From positions 1-6,567 of the IMG/VR virus record IMGVR_UViG_2681813316_000019: DNA of 6,567 nucleotides. The stretch is one strand, 5' to 3'. This stretch comes from a virus (taxonomy: Duplodnaviria > Heunggongvirae > Uroviricota > Caudoviricetes). Below are positions 1 through 6,567 of this stretch, piece after piece. Made by a program: the position numbers and the translations under genes. Within the stretch, counting starts at the first letter, position 1. Each line of letters begins with the position of its first letter. Under the pieces are notes generated by a model. The model had not been told where the DNA came from. It did no database searches and saw nothing but the letters and a program-made list of their open reading frames with translations.

Positions 1-140
1 CTATCGGCGAAGGTGAGTTGATGGCTCATGATGTCCCTCTGGGATGCGCTCCGGATGAATATGATGATCTCATATCAGGAACTTGTTCGCACCTTCCCTA
101 ACTAACACTACGTTTCACACAGCAATTACATGGAAATAAC

Positions 141-488
141 ATGACTATCAAAGCGACTGACATAGAGATTCTTCATCGTTATGCTGAAGGGGTAATGGAA
201 CGTTCTAACCATCATGCAAAAAATGTTGGTGCAGCCGCTCTTACATTGCTAGGAGGTGTTATCTGGAAAGCCCTGCCCGGATCAATCGAGATAAGAACGT
301 ATAACGGAAGTCTTGCAAATATGGTGTGGTGGCAAAGCGAAAGAACATTAAAAAATTATGCAATCTCATACAACCATAATTCATGTGAAATTGAAATGAG
401 AGATGAATCAGTCAAAAGTGCTGTATTATTTAGCATTTCCAACGAAACCACTCCAGAAAAAATATTATCACAGCTTTCTGAGCTTTAA
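141..488 (+). CDS. Hypothetical protein (115 aa), family not recognised; oriented opposite to the adjacent replication operon
   Basis: Intact ATG-initiated ORF 141..488 from the ORF track. Hand count of sample lines gives roughly 40% G+C against about 50% in P/O. No motif I can assign. Sits beyond the 3' end of P where lambda has ren/nin genes, but on the other strand. Confidence 0.45.
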   Translation: MTIKATDIEILHRYAEGVMERSNHHAKNVGAAALTLLGGVIWKALPGSIEIRTYNGSLANMVWWQSERTLKNYAISYNHNSCEIEMRDESVKSAVLFSISNETTPEKILSQLSEL

Positions 489-493
489 TTAAA

Positions 494-511
494 GGCGGTG
501 CTAACACCGCC
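494..511. terminator. GC-rich hairpin (GGCGGTG-CTAA-CACCGCC) between the convergent ORF 141..488 and gene P; possible bidirectional terminator
   Basis: Perfect 7-bp inverted repeat with 4-nt loop seen directly. On the minus strand it is followed by TTTAATTAAA (partly U-rich); on the plus strand the tail is not U-rich. Placed between two convergent genes. Confidence 0.35.
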
Positions 512-692
512 CATACCATTACTCCACATCTTACGCAACTTGATAATTATGCTCTATTAAATACCCACAATATTTCATCAATGCATGGGTCAGCTACAAA
601 ATGTTTACCGTGGTAATTCCTGTTTTCGCAACATCTCAAAAGAACAATAAACACTGTATTTCTTCAAGTAACGAAGAATCTTTCTTTGCCCG

Positions 693-1394
693 TCATACAC
701 TTGCTCCTTTCAGCCCAAACTTAGCTTTGATTTCTGCGATCTTCGCCAGAGCCTGTGCACGATTTAGAGGTCTACCGCCCATAACAGGAAGTTGTTTTAC
801 TGGTTCAGGTATCGTCTCACCACGGTTAATTCGCGCTGTCATACAGGTCAGTTCATCGGCAGCCTTGCGCCGTAATTCCGCGTCAGTCAGCGCATTGGCC
901 CGCATGTTCTGGTACAGGTTGGTAACCAGCCAGTAGTGCGCGTTTGATTTCCATGGATAAGACTCTGCATCCGGATAAAGGCCACGCTTCCGGCAATACT
1001 CGTAAACCATATCAACCAGCTCGCTGGCGTTTGGCAGCCCGGCGTTAACGGATGCTTCTTCCCGGCACCAGGCGACAAACTGCCCGGGTGATGGCAGGAA
1101 TGGTCGATTCTGCCGACGGGCTACGCGCATTCCTGCGTTAACCTGTTCCATTGTGGTGATCCCGTTTTCCCGGAAAGCCAGAACCCACTGGCGGCGGATT
1201 TCGTTCAGTTCGTTCTGGTCACGGTTAGCCAGGCTCGCCGGGAAAGTTGCCAGTAACTGGCTGAACACACCGTTGATGATCTGCGCTACCTGCTGTACCT
1301 GCGGCTTTTCGTCGTACTGTTCCGGCATGTTGTTGGCGATCCGGCGCATCTGCTCACGGTCAAAGTTAACCATCTGTGCGGCGATGTTTTTCAT
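693..1394 (-). CDS. P: Replication protein P (DnaB helicase loader), lambda-type
   Basis: 233-aa translation matches phage lambda P as I remember it almost residue for residue along its whole length (MKNIAAQMVNFDREQMRRIANNMPEQYDEKPQV...AKIAEIKAKFGLKGASV). ATG at 1392-1394 overlaps the TGA stop of the upstream O gene (ATGA). Confidence 0.95.
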   Translation of the reverse strand: MKNIAAQMVNFDREQMRRIANNMPEQYDEKPQVQQVAQIINGVFSQLLATFPASLANRDQNELNEIRRQWVLAFRENGITTMEQVNAGMRVARRQNRPFLPSPGQFVAWCREEASVNAGLPNASELVDMVYEYCRKRGLYPDAESYPWKSNAHYWLVTNLYQNMRANALTDAELRRKAADELTCMTARINRGETIPEPVKQLPVMGGRPLNRAQALAKIAEIKAKFGLKGASV

Positions 1395-2320
1395 AAATCC
1401 ACCCCGTAAATCCAGTCAGTGTTTGTCAGGTCGAGTTTTGATTTTCCGGTTGTCACGCCAGCCTGTTGCTTGTTACGGTTGATTTCGAGTTGGGTCCACT
1501 TGTCGCGGAGTTTGGCCGGACTCAGCACGTTACCGGACCAGAAGTTGTCCTGGCATGCCCAGCGGAACAGCACGCACATGTCGCGGTGGTTACGTCCGTC
1601 ACGTTCACGCATCAGGCGGATATCGTTAGCCCACCCTGCAAAATTCGGTTTTCTGGCTGATGGTGCGATGGTCTTCACCATGTCAAACATCCACTCTGCG
1701 GCGGTCAGGTCTTCTGCTGTCCCCCACTTGCTGCCGCTCTGAATCGCAGCATCCGGTTTCACCACAGGAAGGTCGTTTTCTGGCTGGTCAGAGTATTCGC
1801 CAGAATTCTCGGACGAATAAGGTTTTATATTGTCTTTTGTTAGTTTGTCTTTTGTGTTTACCTGATTCGGGTAAGTGCCTTTACCTGATTTGGGTAAACT
1901 TTTCTTACCTGATTCAGGTAAATTTACCTCTTTCAGGTAAACTTTATTTTTCTTACCTGATTCGGGTAATGTTGACCATTCACTGACCACATTATTAATG
2001 CCGATATTCCGCCCGCTCTGAATAAAAATCCCACGCTTTACCAGAACACTTTTTGCAGCAGAACACTTGTGCGGCAATATCCCGGTCAACTCGGAAAGTT
2101 GCTCGTTGCTCACCCAATCCAGTTTTTTATTAAAGCCATATGTTTTGCGCATGACAGCCAGGAAGACCAGAAGCTGGTGCTGTGTTAATCCGGCCAGCAT
2201 CACAGCTTCCAGCAACTCATTTGCAATGCGCGTATAACCATCATCGAGATCTGCCACGCGCGGCTCCTTTTGTGCCACATCCGGCACTGGAAAATTGAAT
2301 ATCTCAGCAGTGTTTGCCAT
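1391..2320 (-). CDS. O: Replication initiator protein O (origin-binding); C-terminal domain lambda-like, N-terminal DNA-binding region divergent
   Basis: C-terminal about 60 aa (RDMCVLFRWACQDNFWSGNVLSPAKLRDKWTQLEINRNKQQAGVT...LDLTNTDWIYGVDL) matches lambda O closely; the N-terminus MANTAEIFNF resembles lambda O MTNTAKILNF. Start chosen at the ATG at 2318-2320 because it is preceded by GGGAGGAATT (strong SD). The ORF-track extension to 2410 adds 30 residues with no RBS and would overlap the upstream gene. Iterons lie inside the coding region, as in lambda. Confidence 0.9.
   Translation of the reverse strand: MANTAEIFNFPVPDVAQKEPRVADLDDGYTRIANELLEAVMLAGLTQHQLLVFLAVMRKTYGFNKKLDWVSNEQLSELTGILPHKCSAAKSVLVKRGIFIQSGRNIGINNVVSEWSTLPESGKKNKVYLKEVNLPESGKKSLPKSGKGTYPNQVNTKDKLTKDNIKPYSSENSGEYSDQPENDLPVVKPDAAIQSGSKWGTAEDLTAAEWMFDMVKTIAPSARKPNFAGWANDIRLMRERDGRNHRDMCVLFRWACQDNFWSGNVLSPAKLRDKWTQLEINRNKQQAGVTTGKSKLDLTNTDWIYGVDL
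1858..1969. repeat. Origin of replication: five 17-bp iterons (consensus TTACCTGATTCGGGTAA, arms TTACC/GGTAA) inside gene O, with an AT-rich segment at about 1806-1857 on the O-downstream side
   Basis: Seen directly: copies start at 1858, 1881, 1905, 1924 and 1953, each an imperfect palindrome TTACC-N7-GGTAA. The flanking segment 1811-1860 is strongly A+T-rich. Architecture matches ori-lambda (iterons then AT-rich region within O), but the iteron sequence is not the lambda one. Confidence 0.8.
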
Positions 2321-2406
2321 AATTCCTCCCGCAATGAGTGCGTTACGATTTGCACCTGAAAGTCGGCTCTGTTCCCGCAGACCGGCTTTCGCCATTTCTG
2401 AGCCTG

Positions 2407-2952
2407 TCATATTGCCCCCAACATGGTGGTAACCATCGCCATCAATGGACCAGCCAGATCCGGGTCCACACGAAACATCGACACAATACCTTCACTAATT
2501 TCCTTCAGTTTCTGGTGGCGTGGTGCGTTGAGAATGACTGCCTGTTTTGCCTCACTGAGTTCCTTTTCCATTTCAGCCAACCTAGCCATGAAGCTATCCT
2601 GCTCAACCAGGTAACCGCGATATTCCAGCGGTAGTACCGCTAGAATTGCCGGGGTCAGTTCACGCACGTTATTTCGGTATTTTTCAGAATCGAATTTGTT
2701 ATCGAGGAAGCGGAACAGCTTCTGGCGTGCACGGCTGACATCATCAGGGAAATCGATGGCGCCGCCGCCCTGCTCCCGATACTCATTCACAATGAGTGTG
2801 GCAACGACATCCTGATTATCTTCAGCCGACCAGGCGCGGACGGCATCACGGATTTTTTCGTGGCCTGGCACCTGTTTTGTTTGAGAACGATTTATCACCG
2901 CAGTCGGGCTAAATCCGCTAGTCTGTTGGTATGTAAGTGGTTGCATAGTCAT
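2407..2952 (-). CDS. YdaT-like protein at the cII position (function uncertain)
   Basis: 181-aa ORF immediately downstream (24-bp gap) of the Cro-like gene and upstream of O. Segments NEYREQGGG and TPAILAVLPLEYR resemble the Rac-prophage YdaT family as I remember it, which is why I call it YdaT-like. True start may be the second ATG (2944-2946), which has better spacing to an AAGG. Confidence 0.55.
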   Translation of the reverse strand: MTMQPLTYQQTSGFSPTAVINRSQTKQVPGHEKIRDAVRAWSAEDNQDVVATLIVNEYREQGGGAIDFPDDVSRARQKLFRFLDNKFDSEKYRNNVRELTPAILAVLPLEYRGYLVEQDSFMARLAEMEKELSEAKQAVILNAPRHQKLKEISEGIVSMFRVDPDLAGPLMAMVTTMLGAI

Positions 2953-2976
2953 TGCCTTATCAGTTAACGCCGCAGT

Positions 2977-3204
2977 TTAGGCGGCAGAATTACTCGCGTT
3001 AAACAATGGTGCGAGGTCGGGACGAATATCTGCTGGTTTAATCTTTCCACCAGTGGCTGAGACAATTTTCATTACATAGCGGGCATCAATTCCGCCACCG
3101 TGTAGCCAACGCCAAACTGTGGGTTGGGCTACACCGCATAGATCTGCCAGTCGTTTTTGACTACCTGTAATACTGATTGCGAGTTGAATGGTTTGATTTG
3201 TCAT
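2977..3204 (-). CDS. Cro-like small HTH regulator (YdaS-like)
   Basis: 76 aa from the ATG at 3202-3204 (the ORF-track start at 3210 is a TTG). HTH segment GSQKRLADLCGVAQPTVWRW and the downstream IRPDL motif resemble YdaS/Cro-type regulators. Divergent from the repressor gene across a 110-bp operator region. AGGA lies 8 nt upstream. Confidence 0.75.
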   Translation of the reverse strand: MTNQTIQLAISITGSQKRLADLCGVAQPTVWRWLHGGGIDARYVMKIVSATGGKIKPADIRPDLAPLFNASNSAA

Positions 3205-3314
3205 TATCAATTCCTATTGGTATTGCAATGAATGAATAATAGCAATGCGTATTAATCCAAGTAATAGCAAAACGTGTTTTGACCATCAATACGCAAGCGT
3301 ATAAATTAAAACTT
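3205..3314. promoter_or_regulatory. Divergent immunity control region (OR-like): repeated operator motif TAATAGCAA(T) and candidate PR and PRM promoters
   Basis: TAATAGCAAT at 3237-3246 and TAATAGCAA at 3262-3270, plus a related palindromic ATTGCAAT at 3222-3229. Candidate PRM on plus strand: TTGAC(C) 3279-3284, about 16 bp, TATAAA 3300-3305, placing the transcription start at or just before the repressor ATG at 3315. Candidate PR on minus strand: TTGATG (plus coords 3284-3289), 17 bp, TATTAC (3261-3266). Promoter hexamers are by eye, not scored. Confidence 0.55.
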
Positions 3315-4007
3315 ATGAAAAAAGAAACTCTTGCTGATCGCTTAAACCTAGCGATGGAACAATCTGGAATGTCTCAAGGCGCTCTTGCAAAGGCGTCTGG
3401 CGTAGCTCAACCCACAATCTGGAGACTGACAAGCGGCAACGCGCGCGGCTCAACAAAAATTGTTGAAATAGCTAATGCATTGGGTGTTCGAACAGAATGG
3501 CTCTCATCAGGCATAGGCCCGATGAGAAATGACGGTCAACAATCAGGGAAGCCTGCTGTCAGCCATTCAAAATACTTCAAGATTGACGTTCTTGATATAG
3601 AAGTCAGTGCCGGGCCGGGTGTAATCAACCGTGAGTTTGTAGAAGTTCTACGCTCGGTTGAGTACTCGTTTGACGATGCTCGTCACATGTTCGATGGCAG
3701 GAAGGCGGAAAATATCCGCATCATTAACGTGCGTGGTGACAGCATGTCAGGAACGATCGAACCAGGTGATCTTCTGTTCGTTGATATCACGGTTAAATCT
3801 TTCGACGGTGATGGTATCTATGCGTTTCTGTATGACGACACAGCCCATGTAAAGCGCCTGCAAATGATGAAGGATAAGCTGCTGGTTATCTCTGATAACA
3901 AGAGCTACTCACCGTGGGACCCGATCGAGAAAGACGAGATGAACCGGGTATTCATCTTCGGGAAAGTCATCGGAAGCATGCCGCAGACGTATAGGAAGCA
4001 TGGGTAG
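3315..4007 (+). CDS. CI-type prophage repressor: N-terminal HTH_XRE domain plus C-terminal LexA-like S24 peptidase (autocleavable, SOS-inducible type)
   Basis: HTH MSQGALAKASGVAQPTIWRLTSG; candidate Ala-Gly cleavage site in EVSAGPGV; catalytic Ser motif VRGDSMSG and Lys in AHVKRL, as in LexA and lambda CI. Start set at the ATG at 3315 (MKKETL...); the ORF-track start at 3279 is a TTG. No SD precedes 3315. Confidence 0.85.
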   Translation: MKKETLADRLNLAMEQSGMSQGALAKASGVAQPTIWRLTSGNARGSTKIVEIANALGVRTEWLSSGIGPMRNDGQQSGKPAVSHSKYFKIDVLDIEVSAGPGVINREFVEVLRSVEYSFDDARHMFDGRKAENIRIINVRGDSMSGTIEPGDLLFVDITVKSFDGDGIYAFLYDDTAHVKRLQMMKDKLLVISDNKSYSPWDPIEKDEMNRVFIFGKVIGSMPQTYRKHG

Positions 4008-4118
4008 TGAAGGACGTGTCAACTCTATTTTGTAAGCTATCCAGACTCACAGTTGCAGATCGACGAGTAACTTACATACAGCACAAAAAAACAATATGCG
4101 AGTGCTTTTAGACTAGAC

Positions 4119-4133
4119 TTACCATAATGGTAA
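4119..4133. promoter_or_regulatory. 15-bp palindrome TTACCAT-A-ATGGTAA overlapping the first ATG of the toxin-like gene; candidate operator for the module
   Basis: Perfect 7-bp arms seen directly. Resembles the ACCT-N-AGGT type palindromes bound by MqsA-family antitoxins (from memory). Position at the 5' end of the three-gene module. Confidence 0.35.
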
Positions 4134-4537
4134 CAAGTATGATTCTTAGCAGATATGTGGGAACTCCTCCCCGTGATGGCGAGGACAGAAAGATTCAAGG
4201 TGGTCCGCTTTATTTAGATATCATTGATTTGATTGATGAATGTGACACACTGCCTTGGACTAAACGGTGTATCAGGGATGTTCAATCGCTTTCTTTAGAT
4301 GCAGATGACATCAAATCTATGGTGATAAAAGCAGTCACTAAAGGGAGATTTCTAGGTTCAGAATGGTGTCAAGGCAGTAAACCAGGTGTATGGGCAGCTT
4401 GTGATGCTTATAGCTTTGAGCACTCATTTTGGTGCCAAGCTATGCATAAAGAACTTAATAACGAGTTCTACATTAAATTTTTTGTAAACATTACTGGCAA
4501 TGTAGTGCTTACAGTATCTCTTCATCTCTCTAATTGA
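4127..4537 (+). CDS. MqsR-like toxin (RelE-superfamily mRNA interferase fold), putative toxin of a TAC module
   Basis: 136-aa ORF. C-terminal half (DDIKSMVIKAV...WCQAMHKELNNEFYIKFFVNITGNVVLTVSLHLSN) aligns by eye with E. coli MqsR (DFYKSMTT...YLKITVIHDVLIVSFKEK). Toxin-first gene order matches mqsR-mqsA. About 25 N-terminal residues are extra; an alternative start is ATG 4139. No clear SD. Confidence 0.55.
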   Translation: MVTSMILSRYVGTPPRDGEDRKIQGGPLYLDIIDLIDECDTLPWTKRCIRDVQSLSLDADDIKSMVIKAVTKGRFLGSEWCQGSKPGVWAACDAYSFEHSFWCQAMHKELNNEFYIKFFVNITGNVVLTVSLHLSN

Positions 4538-4561
4538 GTGATGATAAATGAGGATTTTTAT

Positions 4562-5149
4562 ATGAGAAACAACAACATATGTCCAGTTTGTGGTGTAGGT
4601 CATCTCACCGTGGAGATGGAGTATGATGATGTTACTTATAAAGGGGAAACAAAAAATCTCCCAATAAGGTTTTCTGTGTGTGATCAATGTGGTTCGGAAA
4701 CTGCCACACCAGTCGATTTACGAGAAAACAAACGAATTTTCAATGAATACAAAAAGTCTATCGATGGACTTTTAACAGGAAAAGAATTAAAAAAAATTAG
4801 AACTGAAGTATGGATGATAACCCAGCAAAAGGCATCCTCTATATTTGGTGGGGGGCCTAAGGCATTTTCCAAGTATGAATCTGATGATGTCATTCAATCA
4901 GAAGCAATGGATAAACTGATGCGTTTAGCAGCAGAAGTTCCTGATGCATTCAAAAGGTTACGGGAATTATCTGGCGAAATCAAAGTTGAAAGAACAGTCT
5001 CATCATCTAAATCTTTACCTATATGGAAATCTGAAGCAAAAGCACAATTTGAAAACGATGATCAGGGATTTGACAGCAAATCACCAGCCCAAACAAAAAT
5101 GAATCAAACATCAATAAAGATAAAAACTGTTGCTAAGCGGGTAGCATGA
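4562..5149 (+). CDS. MqsA-like antitoxin: N-terminal zinc ribbon (CPVC...CDQC) plus HTH_XRE domain, with a C-terminal extension of about 55-60 aa
   Basis: ICPVCGVGH...CDQCGSE resembles the MqsA Zn-binding domain (MKCPVCHQGE...YCVHCEE). ITQQKASSIFGGGPKAFSKYESDD matches the MqsA HTH region LTQKEASEIFGGGVNAFSRYEKGN. Start placed at ATG 4562, preceded by GAGGA with a 7-nt spacer; the ORF-track start at 4538 is GTG. The protein is about 65 aa longer than E. coli MqsA, mostly at the C-terminus. Confidence 0.75.
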   Translation: MRNNNICPVCGVGHLTVEMEYDDVTYKGETKNLPIRFSVCDQCGSETATPVDLRENKRIFNEYKKSIDGLLTGKELKKIRTEVWMITQQKASSIFGGGPKAFSKYESDDVIQSEAMDKLMRLAAEVPDAFKRLRELSGEIKVERTVSSSKSLPIWKSEAKAQFENDDQGFDSKSPAQTKMNQTSIKIKTVAKRVA

Positions 5150-5649
5150 TGAATGAACTTCTTAGATCAGCAATAGACGCATTATCAATAATGCATATCA
5201 ATATCAGAGAATCTAACTTTGCTTTTTCTGAAGGGTATAATAGCTTTAACTTCAACAGCATAAATAAGCAAACACAATCATTTCGTAAGATAAAAAAAAT
5301 CGAAGCTATTGAATTAGTAAGTGACGATGACTCATTAAAAAATGAGCTATATTACTCTTTTCACTACTCAGTTGGGCTTAGATTTATTGCAAAATCCGAA
5401 GAAACATCTAAAGACGAAAATGATGTTGATACAATTTTTTCTATAGAAGCAATTTTTGAGGCGATATATCGCTCAAAAAGAGAATTATCTAAAGAAGAGT
5501 TAGAAGAATTTGCTAAGCAAAATGTAGGTTTTAATGTATGGCCTTTTTGGCGAGAGTATGTTCAAAACAGCACATCCAGAATGGGAATTACTACAATAGC
5601 TATACCATTCTTTAAATTCAATAAATCAGACATACCTTCATTAGATTAA
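5146..5649 (+). CDS. SecB-like chaperone, putative third component of a TAC module
   Basis: 167 aa. C-terminal segment FNVWPFWREYVQNSTSRMGITTIAIPFFKF matches the conserved SecB segment [34 protein letters not shown]; IFSI and an acidic central region also align. Start ATG overlaps the antitoxin stop (ATGA at 5146-5149), suggesting translational coupling. Hand-counted G+C on one sample line is about one third. Confidence 0.6.
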   Translation: MMNELLRSAIDALSIMHINIRESNFAFSEGYNSFNFNSINKQTQSFRKIKKIEAIELVSDDDSLKNELYYSFHYSVGLRFIAKSEETSKDENDVDTIFSIEAIFEAIYRSKRELSKEELEEFAKQNVGFNVWPFWREYVQNSTSRMGITTIAIPFFKFNKSDIPSLD

Positions 5650-5663
5650 ATTCAAATATAACT

Positions 5664-5690
5664 CCCGGCTACCGTGCCGGGTTTTCTTTT
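5664..5690 (+). terminator. Rho-independent terminator ending the repressor-side operon (t_imm equivalent)
   Basis: CCCGGC-TACCGT-GCCGGG hairpin (6-bp GC stem) followed directly by TTTTCTTTT, 15 bp after the stop of the SecB-like gene. Confidence 0.8.
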
Positions 5691-5780
5691 GTCCCCTCCC
5701 CTCATCACACACCGTTCAAAAAACCACCACGACCTCACTTCAGTTATCGCTATGCGATGCAAGTCACAAAATTAATTCTT

Positions 5781-5860
5781 TTTGCTATCAAACATTTAAT
5801 ATCAAAACACATCAACTAATAGCAATAAGTATTGATATCACCAATAGCAATAGCTATTAT
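5781..5860 (+). promoter_or_regulatory. OL/PL-like region: operator motif copies shared with the OR region, overlapping a candidate sigma70 promoter for the leftward early operon
   Basis: TAATAGCAAT at 5817-5826 (exact 10-mer also at 3237-3246), AATAGCAAT at 5843-5851 adjoining palindrome AATAGCTATT (5849-5858), and reverse-oriented TTTGCTAT at 5781-5788. Candidate promoter: TTGATA 5832-5837, 17-bp spacer, TATTAT 5855-5860, with operator copies in the spacer. Confidence 0.55.
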
Positions 5861-6137
5861 CACCATATCGCAACAACACAACGATACGGCAACCACCTGA
5901 TTCACCGTTGCGATGACCGCTTAGATCCGCAGCTTGAATTTCAGCAGGCTTCGGGGAGTGCGAGGGATGAAACGGACGCGTGAACGTCGGTGTGACCAGC
6001 TGAAATCAACTCAACATTTCATACCTTAGTCGCTTCAACGAGGCGGCTTAGTTATGACAACCGGCGGCCATCCACCGCCTGAATACGCGCAGAAGTCTTT
6101 ATATGTTCAGCAGCCCAGCTTACGGGCAGGAGTTTTT

Positions 6138-6344
6138 ATGGTTCATCAACATTACGGAACGCAGACCGTTAATCGCGGTGCGGTCATGCCAGGAATGCTG
6201 GTCAAACGCAAAGATGGTACCTGGACTGCATCAGCTAATTTACGCGGACGACTTTATCTGCATCGCGGCATTGAGCGCACTTATACCCGTGACTTGCTCG
6301 TGGAAGTTTTTCTCGACGGACGCGGTAACGGCCTCAATCACTAA
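6138..6344 (+). CDS. Hypothetical small early protein (68 aa from ATG 6138), upstream of gam
   Basis: ATG 6138 is preceded by AGGAG with a 5-nt spacer. The frame is open back to 6030 (ORF track starts it at ATG 6054, 96 aa). Composition looks protein-like. No family recognised. Confidence 0.35.
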
Positions 6345-6419
6345 TCCCCTTTCCTGTTTTCCTAATCAGCCTGGCATTTCGCGGGCGATATTTTCACAGC
6401 CATTTTCAGGAGTTCAGCC

Positions 6420-6567
6420 ATGAACGCTTATTACATTCAGGATCGTCTTGAGGCTCAGAGCTGGGCGCGTCACTACCAGCAGATCGCCCGTGAAGAGAAA
6501 GAGGCAGAACTGGCAGACGACATGGAAAAAGGCCTGCCCCAGCACCTGTTTGAATCGCTATGCATCG
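6420..6567 (+). CDS. gam: Host-nuclease (RecBCD) inhibitor Gam, 5' portion only (continues past window end)
   Basis: Translation [49 protein letters not shown] matches the lambda Gam (GamS form) N-terminus as I remember it, with one conservative difference. AGGAG lies 7 nt upstream of the ATG. The window ends at 6567 inside the gene. Confidence 0.9.

Follow-up and report, generated by a model that had tools for sequence, protein, structure and literature searches.

In E. coli K-12, the antitoxin MqsA binds the motif (T)TAACCT-N3-AGGTTA(A) in the mqsRA promoter (PMC4894380), where two palindromes are found, TAACCT-TTT-AGGTg and TTAACCT-TTT-AGGTTA. Pseudomonas putida MqsA was shown by electrophoretic mobility shift assay (EMSA) to bind a single palindrome, TTAACCT-GGA-AGGTTAA, overlapping the ribosome binding site (RBS) of mqsR; binding was lost upon mutation of one arm, the spacer sequence being irrelevant, and Asn97 and Arg101 are the DNA-binding residues of MqsA (PMC5422877). 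In E. coli C496_10, a toxin-antitoxin-chaperone module, MqsRAC, has been reported to provide phage defence and to require both antitoxin and chaperone for neutralisation of the toxin (PMC9519451). Here we analyse a 6,567-nt stretch of DNA from a caudoviral record (IMG/VR IMGVR_UViG_2681813316_000019, positions 1 to 6,567; this whole stretch is referred to as the window), which comprises the immunity and replication region of a lambdoid prophage and carries such a module. The 15-bp palindrome TTACCATAATGGTAA, the exact reading of window positions 4119–4133, lies on the toxin start codon and is very probably the operator of the module's own MqsA-family antitoxin.

Published work on MqsRAC and on the related Vcho-TAC deals with toxicity, chaperone dependence, T2 defence and persistence (PMC9519451, PMC10783111, PMC5105189). 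Neither an operator nor a palindrome is mentioned in PMC9519451, PMC10783111 (Fernandez-Garcia 2023) or PMC5105189, the word 'palindrome' being absent from PMC10783111 and 'operator' from PMC5105189.

The palindrome and its conservation

The features concerned are the following:

4119..4133: palindrome TTACCATAATGGTAA, two half-sites of 6 bp each, TTACCA and TGGTAA, with a 3-bp gap TAA; proposed operator of the MqsA-family antitoxin
4127..4537, + strand: mqsR-like toxin gene, 136 aa; alternative ATG 4139 in the Prokaryotic Genome Annotation Pipeline (PGAP) annotation and in Vassallo et al.
4562..5149, + strand: mqsA-family antitoxin gene, 195 aa, with a Zn-ribbon CPVC...CDQC, a helix-turn-helix (HTH) domain and a C-terminal extension
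5146..5649, + strand: mqsC, SecB-like chaperone gene, with a weak SecB match, the corresponding PGAP name and the published mqsC primers at its ends

The original prediction, made from the letters of the window, had described a near-perfect palindrome with 7-bp arms around one central base. Arms and centre were found as described, but the reservation 'near' was unnecessary since the arms match perfectly (7+1+7, central A) and the reverse complement departs at the central base alone. The prediction had also placed the first ATG of a toxin-like open reading frame (ORF) inside the palindrome. Indeed, the right arm holds ATG 4127–4129, which opens ORF 4127–4537 (136 codons), and an in-frame TAG at 4109–4111 excludes any earlier start; the next in-frame ATG is found at 4139. 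By itself, the palindrome is statistically unremarkable, about one such structure being expected per window. When all palindromes with 7-bp arms around no more than one central base were counted, Markov shuffles gave 1.1 and the window 4, of which 2 derive from iterons. Its significance comes from conservation across relatives and not from rarity in the window.

One genome per species was scanned, which gave 72 chromosomal loci (504 kb) from gamma- and betaproteobacteria whose toxins are 32–47% identical to that of the window. The pattern [AT]ACCA-N3-TGGTA occurs exactly once per locus at 71 of the 72, always on the toxin start codon, which at these related loci is composed of the final spacer base and the TG of the right half-site. 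Over the 504 kb, 71 occurrences were observed against 0.7–1.0 expected, and none was found away from a toxin start. The sole chromosomal locus without the palindrome (L059) has a 5′-truncated toxin gene, with a match beginning at residue 29. At 3950–4001 of this locus, the truncated toxin directly follows an apparent tRNA-gene 3′ end (...GGTTCAAGTCTCTCCGTTCGCACCA); the junction may be a recombination or integration scar.

The site was present in 18 of 20 viral contigs, the remaining 2 being cut by the contig end, and Klebsiella phage 2b LV-2017 carries the identical 15-mer though its module is only 76% identical overall. Overall, some ninety related modules from widely differing bacteria have the toxin start codon within the site. 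In the window, a 24-bp gap separates the toxin gene from the antitoxin gene, which follows on the same strand. The order toxin-antitoxin is the same in all 72 chromosomal loci, with the MqsA-like gene directly 3′ of the toxin at every one of them, whether the chaperone gene is present or absent. A SecB-like gene occurs in roughly the gammaproteobacterial half of the loci; loci L044–L075, mostly from betaproteobacteria, have a two-gene form in which no SecB-like third gene was detected.

The search for further copies that the original prediction had called for was carried out, and returned one strict site per locus and, in the window, a single additional and degenerate copy. With up to 2 mismatches, TTACCANNNTGGTAA was found twice in the window against 0.24 expected; the second match, TTACCTATATGGAAA (5015–5029, 2 mismatches), is located within the antitoxin gene and probably arose by chance. 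A second operator copy at this position, by analogy with K-12, was rejected, as the corresponding place in Klebsiella phage 2b has no conserved site. Phage PhiR70_1 (complete genome, 48.7 kb), which has the module, carries a single perfect operator site. We also rejected the idea that the palindrome marks the end of a mobile cassette, as a terminal repeat or an att-like site, since no partner copy was found at the 3′ end of any locus.

Position-wise conservation was counted on 70 non-redundant loci. The non-coding left arm of the site is invariant, codon 2 of the toxin is GTA with A as third base in 70/70 loci, position +7 is A in 68/70 despite a variable residue 3, and further upstream than −13 the information content is close to zero. 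It is these observations which indicate that the constraint is on the DNA and not on the protein. The spacer varies (TAA 32, TTA 18, TCA 5, CCA 5, CGA 4, and others); the start codon restricts its final position to A (67) or G (3), and the symmetric partner is freer, with T (59), C (9) or A (2). Changes in the arms are few, one-sided and uncompensated (ATACCA...TGGTAA and TTACCA...TGGTAC), which argues for recognition by a protein over pairing in RNA.

These data also bear on the toxin start itself, for which annotations disagree: PGAP (E. coli PI7) and the published pBAD-mqsR construct take ATG 4139, the annotation of phage PhiR70_1 ATG 4127. The start codon within the site is in frame with the invariant AACDAY motif in 69/70 loci over ten different spacings, and an in-frame stop precedes the ATG in loci of the TTGAC class. 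Moreover, AGY and TCN codons both occur at toxin Ser8 across the family, showing that the N-terminus is genuinely translated. As judged from this comparison, ATG 4127, inside the operator, is the family-conserved toxin start, which settles the conflict in its favour. An MqsR construct starting at ATG 4139 was reported to be toxic (PMC9519451); residues 1–4 are thus dispensable for toxicity.

The MqsA-family antitoxin as candidate ligand

The antitoxin matches Pfam MqsA_antitoxin (PF15731) with an E value of 1.9e-17 and 64 bits (cut-off 30), covering positions 3–131 of 131. Its residues 6–133 align to MqsA (3GN5/3O9X) and PGAP names it an MqsA family antitoxin; by these matches it is a bona fide MqsA-family protein. 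With 195 aa compared to 131 for MqsA, it carries about 60 extra residues beyond residue 133, where homology stops, and this extension is presumed to be a chaperone-addiction element. The third-gene product, named 'protein-export chaperone SecB' by PGAP, scored 16.5 bits (E 0.0084) with Pfam SecB, below the 26-bit cut-off, and weakly with PADLOC PD-T4-9_C (E 7e-4).

For the toxin, no Pfam family was obtained at E≤0.01 and the PGAP label is hypothetical; an alignment of the toxin family compared with K-12 MqsR by hhalign gave a probability of 0.4%. It was assigned the MqsR (RelE-like) fold of the MqsRA family. The toxin family is small (28 clusters, a Pfam domain in none) and almost all its members (at least 90%) begin with Met-Val. 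Compared with MqsR, the family is about 30 residues longer at the N-terminus, and it is recognised by no sequence library. Its invariant residues (P15, P27, Y29, T45, C48, W80, C81, AACDAY 90–95, K117 and H133) do not map simply onto the published active-site residues of MqsR.

The mqsR, mqsA and mqsC primers of Vassallo et al. (2022) match the three genes of the window (PMC9519451, Table S8), and their synthetic 'MsqRAC gene fragment' begins at window position 4040 and spans the palindrome with few base differences. This correspondence identifies the window module with MqsRAC of E. coli C496_10, the published defence system made up of toxin, antitoxin and chaperone; 18 of 5426 complete E. coli genomes carry the module. 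Cloned in pCV1, a vector listed as promoterless, the MqsRAC fragment protects against T2 (PMC9519451, Table S7/S8). Since a fragment starting at 4040 gives T2 defence, the regulatory signals lie within about 90 bp of the site.

The window site, TTACCA-TAA-TGGTAA, has the 6-3-6 geometry and the ACC-N5-GGT frame of the proven MqsA operators. That the family binds palindromes of the ACC...GGT type, as stated in the original prediction, agrees with the (T)TAACCT-N3-AGGTTA(A) operators of K-12 and P. putida (PMC4894380, PMC5422877). The window nevertheless reads ACCA-N3-TGGT instead of 5′-ACCT-N3-AGGT-3′, and its half-site differs at 2 of 6 positions (2 and 6). At the aligned positions of MqsA Asn97 and Arg101, the window antitoxin has Lys and Lys; across the family, the Asn97 equivalent is Val in 65/74 members and otherwise Lys, and that of Arg101 is Lys in 74/74. 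The changed contact positions sit in an otherwise conserved motif of the antitoxin family, FGGGxxAFSxYE. Thus, changed contact residues parallel a changed half-site in which the ACC/GGT core is retained. By analogy, these antitoxins would be a sister subfamily to MqsA, one that uses an operator of its own.

With the K-12 system the module shares a toxin-first operon, an antitoxin with Zn-ribbon and HTH, 6-bp half-sites and a 3-bp spacer (structure 3O9X). It differs in having one site where K-12 has two, in the half-site (TTACCA versus TAACCT), and in the location of the site, on the toxin start codon in the window and about 27 and 60 bp upstream in K-12. Its toxin, of 136 aa and N-terminally extended, is also missed by the Pfam MqsR model. 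With the MqsA system of P. putida KT2440 (PP_4204), the module shares a single palindrome at the translation-initiation region of the toxin. However, the P. putida palindrome is 17 bp long with canonical ACCT/AGGT, overlaps the RBS and not the start codon, and belongs to a two-gene system whose antitoxin has conserved N97 and R101. Vcho-TAC of V. cholerae RC385 (Bordes 2016, PMC5105189) is of the same family as the window module, and its toxin primer begins with ATGGTAAATAAT, that is, with the same right half-site.

Taken together, we consider it likely that the palindrome is the autoregulatory operator of the MqsA subfamily's own antitoxin, located inside the spacer of an enclosing promoter. 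An operator for the MqsA-like antitoxin had been suggested in the original prediction, and both the conservation of the site with the toxin-antitoxin pair and its MqsA-operator geometry speak in favour of it. Binding would involve a dimer of the C-terminal HTH domains of the antitoxin sitting on the half-sites TTACCA and TGGTAA across their 3-bp gap, in the way MqsA binds TAACCT-N3-AGGTTA. The bound antitoxin would exclude RNA polymerase, since the site lies between a −35-like TAGACT and a −10-like TATGAT, resulting in negative autoregulation of the mqsRAC operon.

Promoter geometry and alternative explanations

The elements considered here are, in addition:

3315..4007, + strand: cI-type repressor gene (Pfam Peptidase_S24 and HTH_3), co-directional with the module
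4114..4119, + strand: −35-like TAGACT, overlapping the start of the palindrome by one base (4119)
4138..4143, + strand: −10-like TATGAT, within toxin codons 4–6, with a predicted transcription start near 4150
5664..5690, + strand: intrinsic terminator, a 6-bp all-GC stem followed by TTTTCTTTT, which closes the cI-mqsRAC transcription unit

In a promoter scan, nothing near the site resembled a promoter except TAGACT-18-TATGAT (9/12 matches, palindrome in the spacer). The longest stretch shared without change by the E. coli and Klebsiella-phage modules (4113–4146, 34 bp) falls at the same place. At the position equivalent to TAGACT, 28 other loci have TTGACT, TGGACT or TTGACA, and the two elements co-occur: TAnnAT at +12..+17 was present in 29/31 loci with a −35-like hexamer at −13..−8, compared to 6/39 loci without it (Fisher 3e-11, uncorrected for phylogeny). 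A second register, with the −35 at −17 and AATAAT at +7..+12, was found in about 11 loci. With the two registers combined, a sigma-70-like promoter enclosing the site scored better than flank shuffles (p<0.05) in 41/70 loci. In a third register, the operator centre CATAAT would serve as −10, with TTGACA or TTGACT 16 bp upstream. The predicted start lies 8–24 nt downstream of the toxin ATG in all three registers (about 24 nt in the window), so that the promoter would serve mainly the antitoxin and the chaperone, not the toxin. The antitoxin gene has a good GAGGA RBS at about 4550. Past the predicted transcription start, a search for another conserved start codon found none.

As for the toxin, some transcript must start between 4040 and 4127/4139, because the fragment works in a promoterless vector, a point against read-through as the sole source. 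No convincing promoter was found upstream of the window ATG, the best match being CTCACA-16-TAACTT with a low score, and no terminator was predicted between cI and the palindrome (scan of 3900–5800, the first at 5664). Toxin-encoding transcripts would begin upstream, either as cI/PRM read-through, a possible source in the window, or at a weak promoter within 4040–4126, and operator-bound antitoxin could also block them as they arrive. Among the chromosomal loci, the nearest upstream ORF is co-directional at 58/71 (by a crude ORF criterion) and a terminator-like hairpin occurs within 250 nt upstream at only 9/69. Ten upstream neighbours were scanned: type I restriction-modification specificity or methylase (S/M) genes in three cases and the GmrSD restriction enzyme in one, with a ribonucleotide reductase carrying an intein, an IrrE-like peptidase and a DUF4143 ATPase among the others.

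A tentative interpretation of this arrangement is that an antitoxin-controlled sigma-70 promoter fires 19–24 nt inside the toxin ORF (near 4150 in the window) and that toxin is made only from upstream transcripts, which would be roadblocked at its first codon, making the cassette self-insulating. The co-occurring hexamers, the enclosing promoters in 41/70 loci, the third register with CATAAT, the end of conservation at −13, the co-directional upstream ORFs, the scarcity of terminators and the two kinds of codon at Ser8 are what suggest it. There is a parallel in E. coli K-12, where the antitoxin-only promoters pA1 and pA2 are located inside mqsR (Fraikin 2019, PMC6918082): from their place inside the toxin ORF they transcribe the antitoxin without the toxin, which solves the toxin-first problem, and the promoter predicted in the window would act likewise. 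In contrast to pA1 and pA2, which are constitutive and MqsA-independent, the promoter predicted in the window has the operator in its spacer and overlaps the first six codons of the toxin.

Several points weigh against the operator and promoter assignments. The half-site is non-canonical (not ACCT/AGGT) and neither of the two known contact residues is kept, so that the binding mode is proposed by analogy; in the searchable literature, no binding or reporter experiment for the subfamily was found, and the site string has no match. Over 3900–5800, matches to the consensus promoter show no enrichment (3, against 6.0 in shuffles). The predicted promoter starts downstream of both toxin ATGs, yet the fragment in the promoterless vector must express toxin. 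Finally, about 29/70 loci, mostly betaproteobacterial two-gene ones, have no enclosing promoter but TAAAAT at −13..−8, so that the family does not share one promoter geometry.

Alternatively, with the operator unchanged, TAGACT (4114–4119) could act as a −10 and transcription begin at A4127, giving a leaderless toxin mRNA whose start site, and not the promoter spacer, is covered by the operator. In favour of such an mRNA, an ATG (or GTG) is fixed within the site at all loci with +1 only A or G, and a Shine-Dalgarno sequence is impossible as the left arm fills that space. The critical A2 and T6 are both present in TAGACT, which stops 7 nt short of A4127; TAAAAT, a good −10, is found at the equivalent position in 12 betaproteobacterial loci, and the promoterless-vector construct needs a toxin transcript starting within 4040–4127/4139. 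However, the TTGACT, TGGACT or TTGACA of 24 or more loci lacks A2, is −35-like and has TAnnAT 18 bp downstream, and the window shows no convincing −35 at 16–18 bp upstream of TAGACT. A leaderless start at 4127 would thus be possible in the window and in the TAAAAT loci but not in the TTGACT class, and as an account of the site we regard it as doubtful. In loci L044–L075, (C)TAAAAT occupies −13..−8 in place of TTGACT and TAnnAT at +12..+17 is lacking, which suggests a different promoter arrangement there, possibly with a leaderless toxin mRNA. The arms could also act in the mRNA: paired with each other, they would conceal the AUG and lower toxin translation, and selection would not be on DNA binding. 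Low toxin translation would suit a toxin-first operon, and the RNA fold of 4112–4140 indeed gives a 6-bp stem with a 3-nt loop and the UG of the AUG in the stem (−4.1 kcal/mol). The fold is weak, though, and no better than that of shuffles (z −0.8; 41/200 shuffles fold equally well), the arm sequence itself is conserved beyond what pairing requires, its changes show no covariation, and the three kinds of predicted promoter would leave the left arm untranscribed. The hairpin was rejected on these grounds as a very unlikely explanation; it may add some translational damping, while the sequence-specific conservation would be left unexplained by it.

The remaining alternatives involve the phage O replication protein and chance. 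The features needed are:

1391..2410, − strand: O gene (Pfam Phage_rep_O)
1858–1874, within O: iteron TTACC-N7-GGTAA
1881–1897, within O: iteron TTACC-N7-GGTAA
1905–1921, within O: iteron TTACC-N7-GGTAA
1924–1940, within O: iteron TTACC-N7-GGTAA
1953–1969, within O: iteron TTACC-N7-GGTAA

As the original prediction had noticed, the palindrome and all five iterons have the outer arms TTACC/GGTAA in common, around a centre of 5 bp in the former and 7 bp in the latter. Given this identity, a coincidence whose a priori chance is roughly 1 in 1000 per palindrome, the site could be a stray or accessory target of O. The shorter centre, however, alters the spacing and phase of the half-sites, and the palindrome contains no 17-bp TTACC-N7-GGTAA dyad and stands as a single copy 1.7 kb from O, not in a tandem array. 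Klebsiella phage 2b has the identical site but iterons of the CATGTGCGG type; iteron arrays are absent from the 72 chromosomal loci, 71 of which have the site; and L080, a 99%-identical prophage copy in E. coli, has no such iterons within 5 kb. Conversely, the O-iteron region (window 1780–2060, at least 80% coverage) was detected in 2406 of the 5426 complete E. coli genomes and the module in 18. In the absence of co-occurrence, the link to O was rejected, and cross-talk at the palindrome, raised as a question in the original prediction, appears extremely improbable. Its accompanying remark that the resemblance is probably coincidental holds, since it is the toxin-antitoxin pair, and not O, that the site accompanies. 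Set against the lambda O/ori iterons, those of the window are dyad-symmetric with a 7-bp centre and stand in five tandem copies in O, whereas the operator is single and of 6-3-6 layout. That the palindrome might be a functionless chance event could be argued from the 1.1 or so palindromes of such size per shuffled window, but the 504 kb of related loci hold the motif 71 times where about one copy would be expected, each at an identical place relative to toxins only 32–47% identical; the comparative data rule chance out, and its probability is practically nil.

A third palindrome with TTACC/GGTAA arms, TTACCGTGGTAA (TTACC-GT-GGTAA, 2-bp centre), is located at 605–616, in the intergenic DNA separating ORF 141–488 from the end of P; apart from the iterons, only about 0.1 matches to TTACC-N(0–12)-GGTAA are expected in the window.

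Prophage setting and implications

Besides O, the replication region includes:

693–1394, − strand: P gene

A YdaT-family gene and a cro-like gene are also present within the prophage window. The sequence AATAGCAA occurs in two copies in the cI-cro intergenic region (3238–3270) and two just past the module terminator (5818–5850), 4 matches against 0.38 expected in the window. These repeats are presumably the OR- and OL-type operators of the prophage cI, and their positions place mqsRAC between cI and OL. The module thus occupies the site of rexAB in lambda, downstream of cI and before the terminator and OL. The prophage cI or Cro was rejected as a binder of the palindrome, the apparent cI/Cro operators (AATAGCAA at 3238/3263 and 5818/5843) being unrelated to it in sequence. 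Downstream of P, ORF 141–488 matches Pfam VCH_CASS14 (integron cassette protein; E 3.8e-19). The annotation of phage PhiR70_1 has ren at the same place, which makes it another position of swapped cargo.

MqsRAC is an experimentally validated anti-phage system whose regulation had not been described previously. The comparison presented here points to an MqsA-type operator of altered specificity, fused to the toxin start codon, in this already published defence module. As far as the phage is concerned, the resemblance between palindrome and O iterons can be disregarded. The family-wide operator TTACCA-N3-TGGTAA, together with the likely specificity residues of the antitoxin, provides a ready-made test of specificity switching in the MqsA-type HTH. 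If the proposed promoter geometry is true, it would be a compact means for a toxin-first operon to keep antitoxin in excess, and the module would stay safe after horizontal transfer, which bears on how defence cassettes move between phages and chromosomes.

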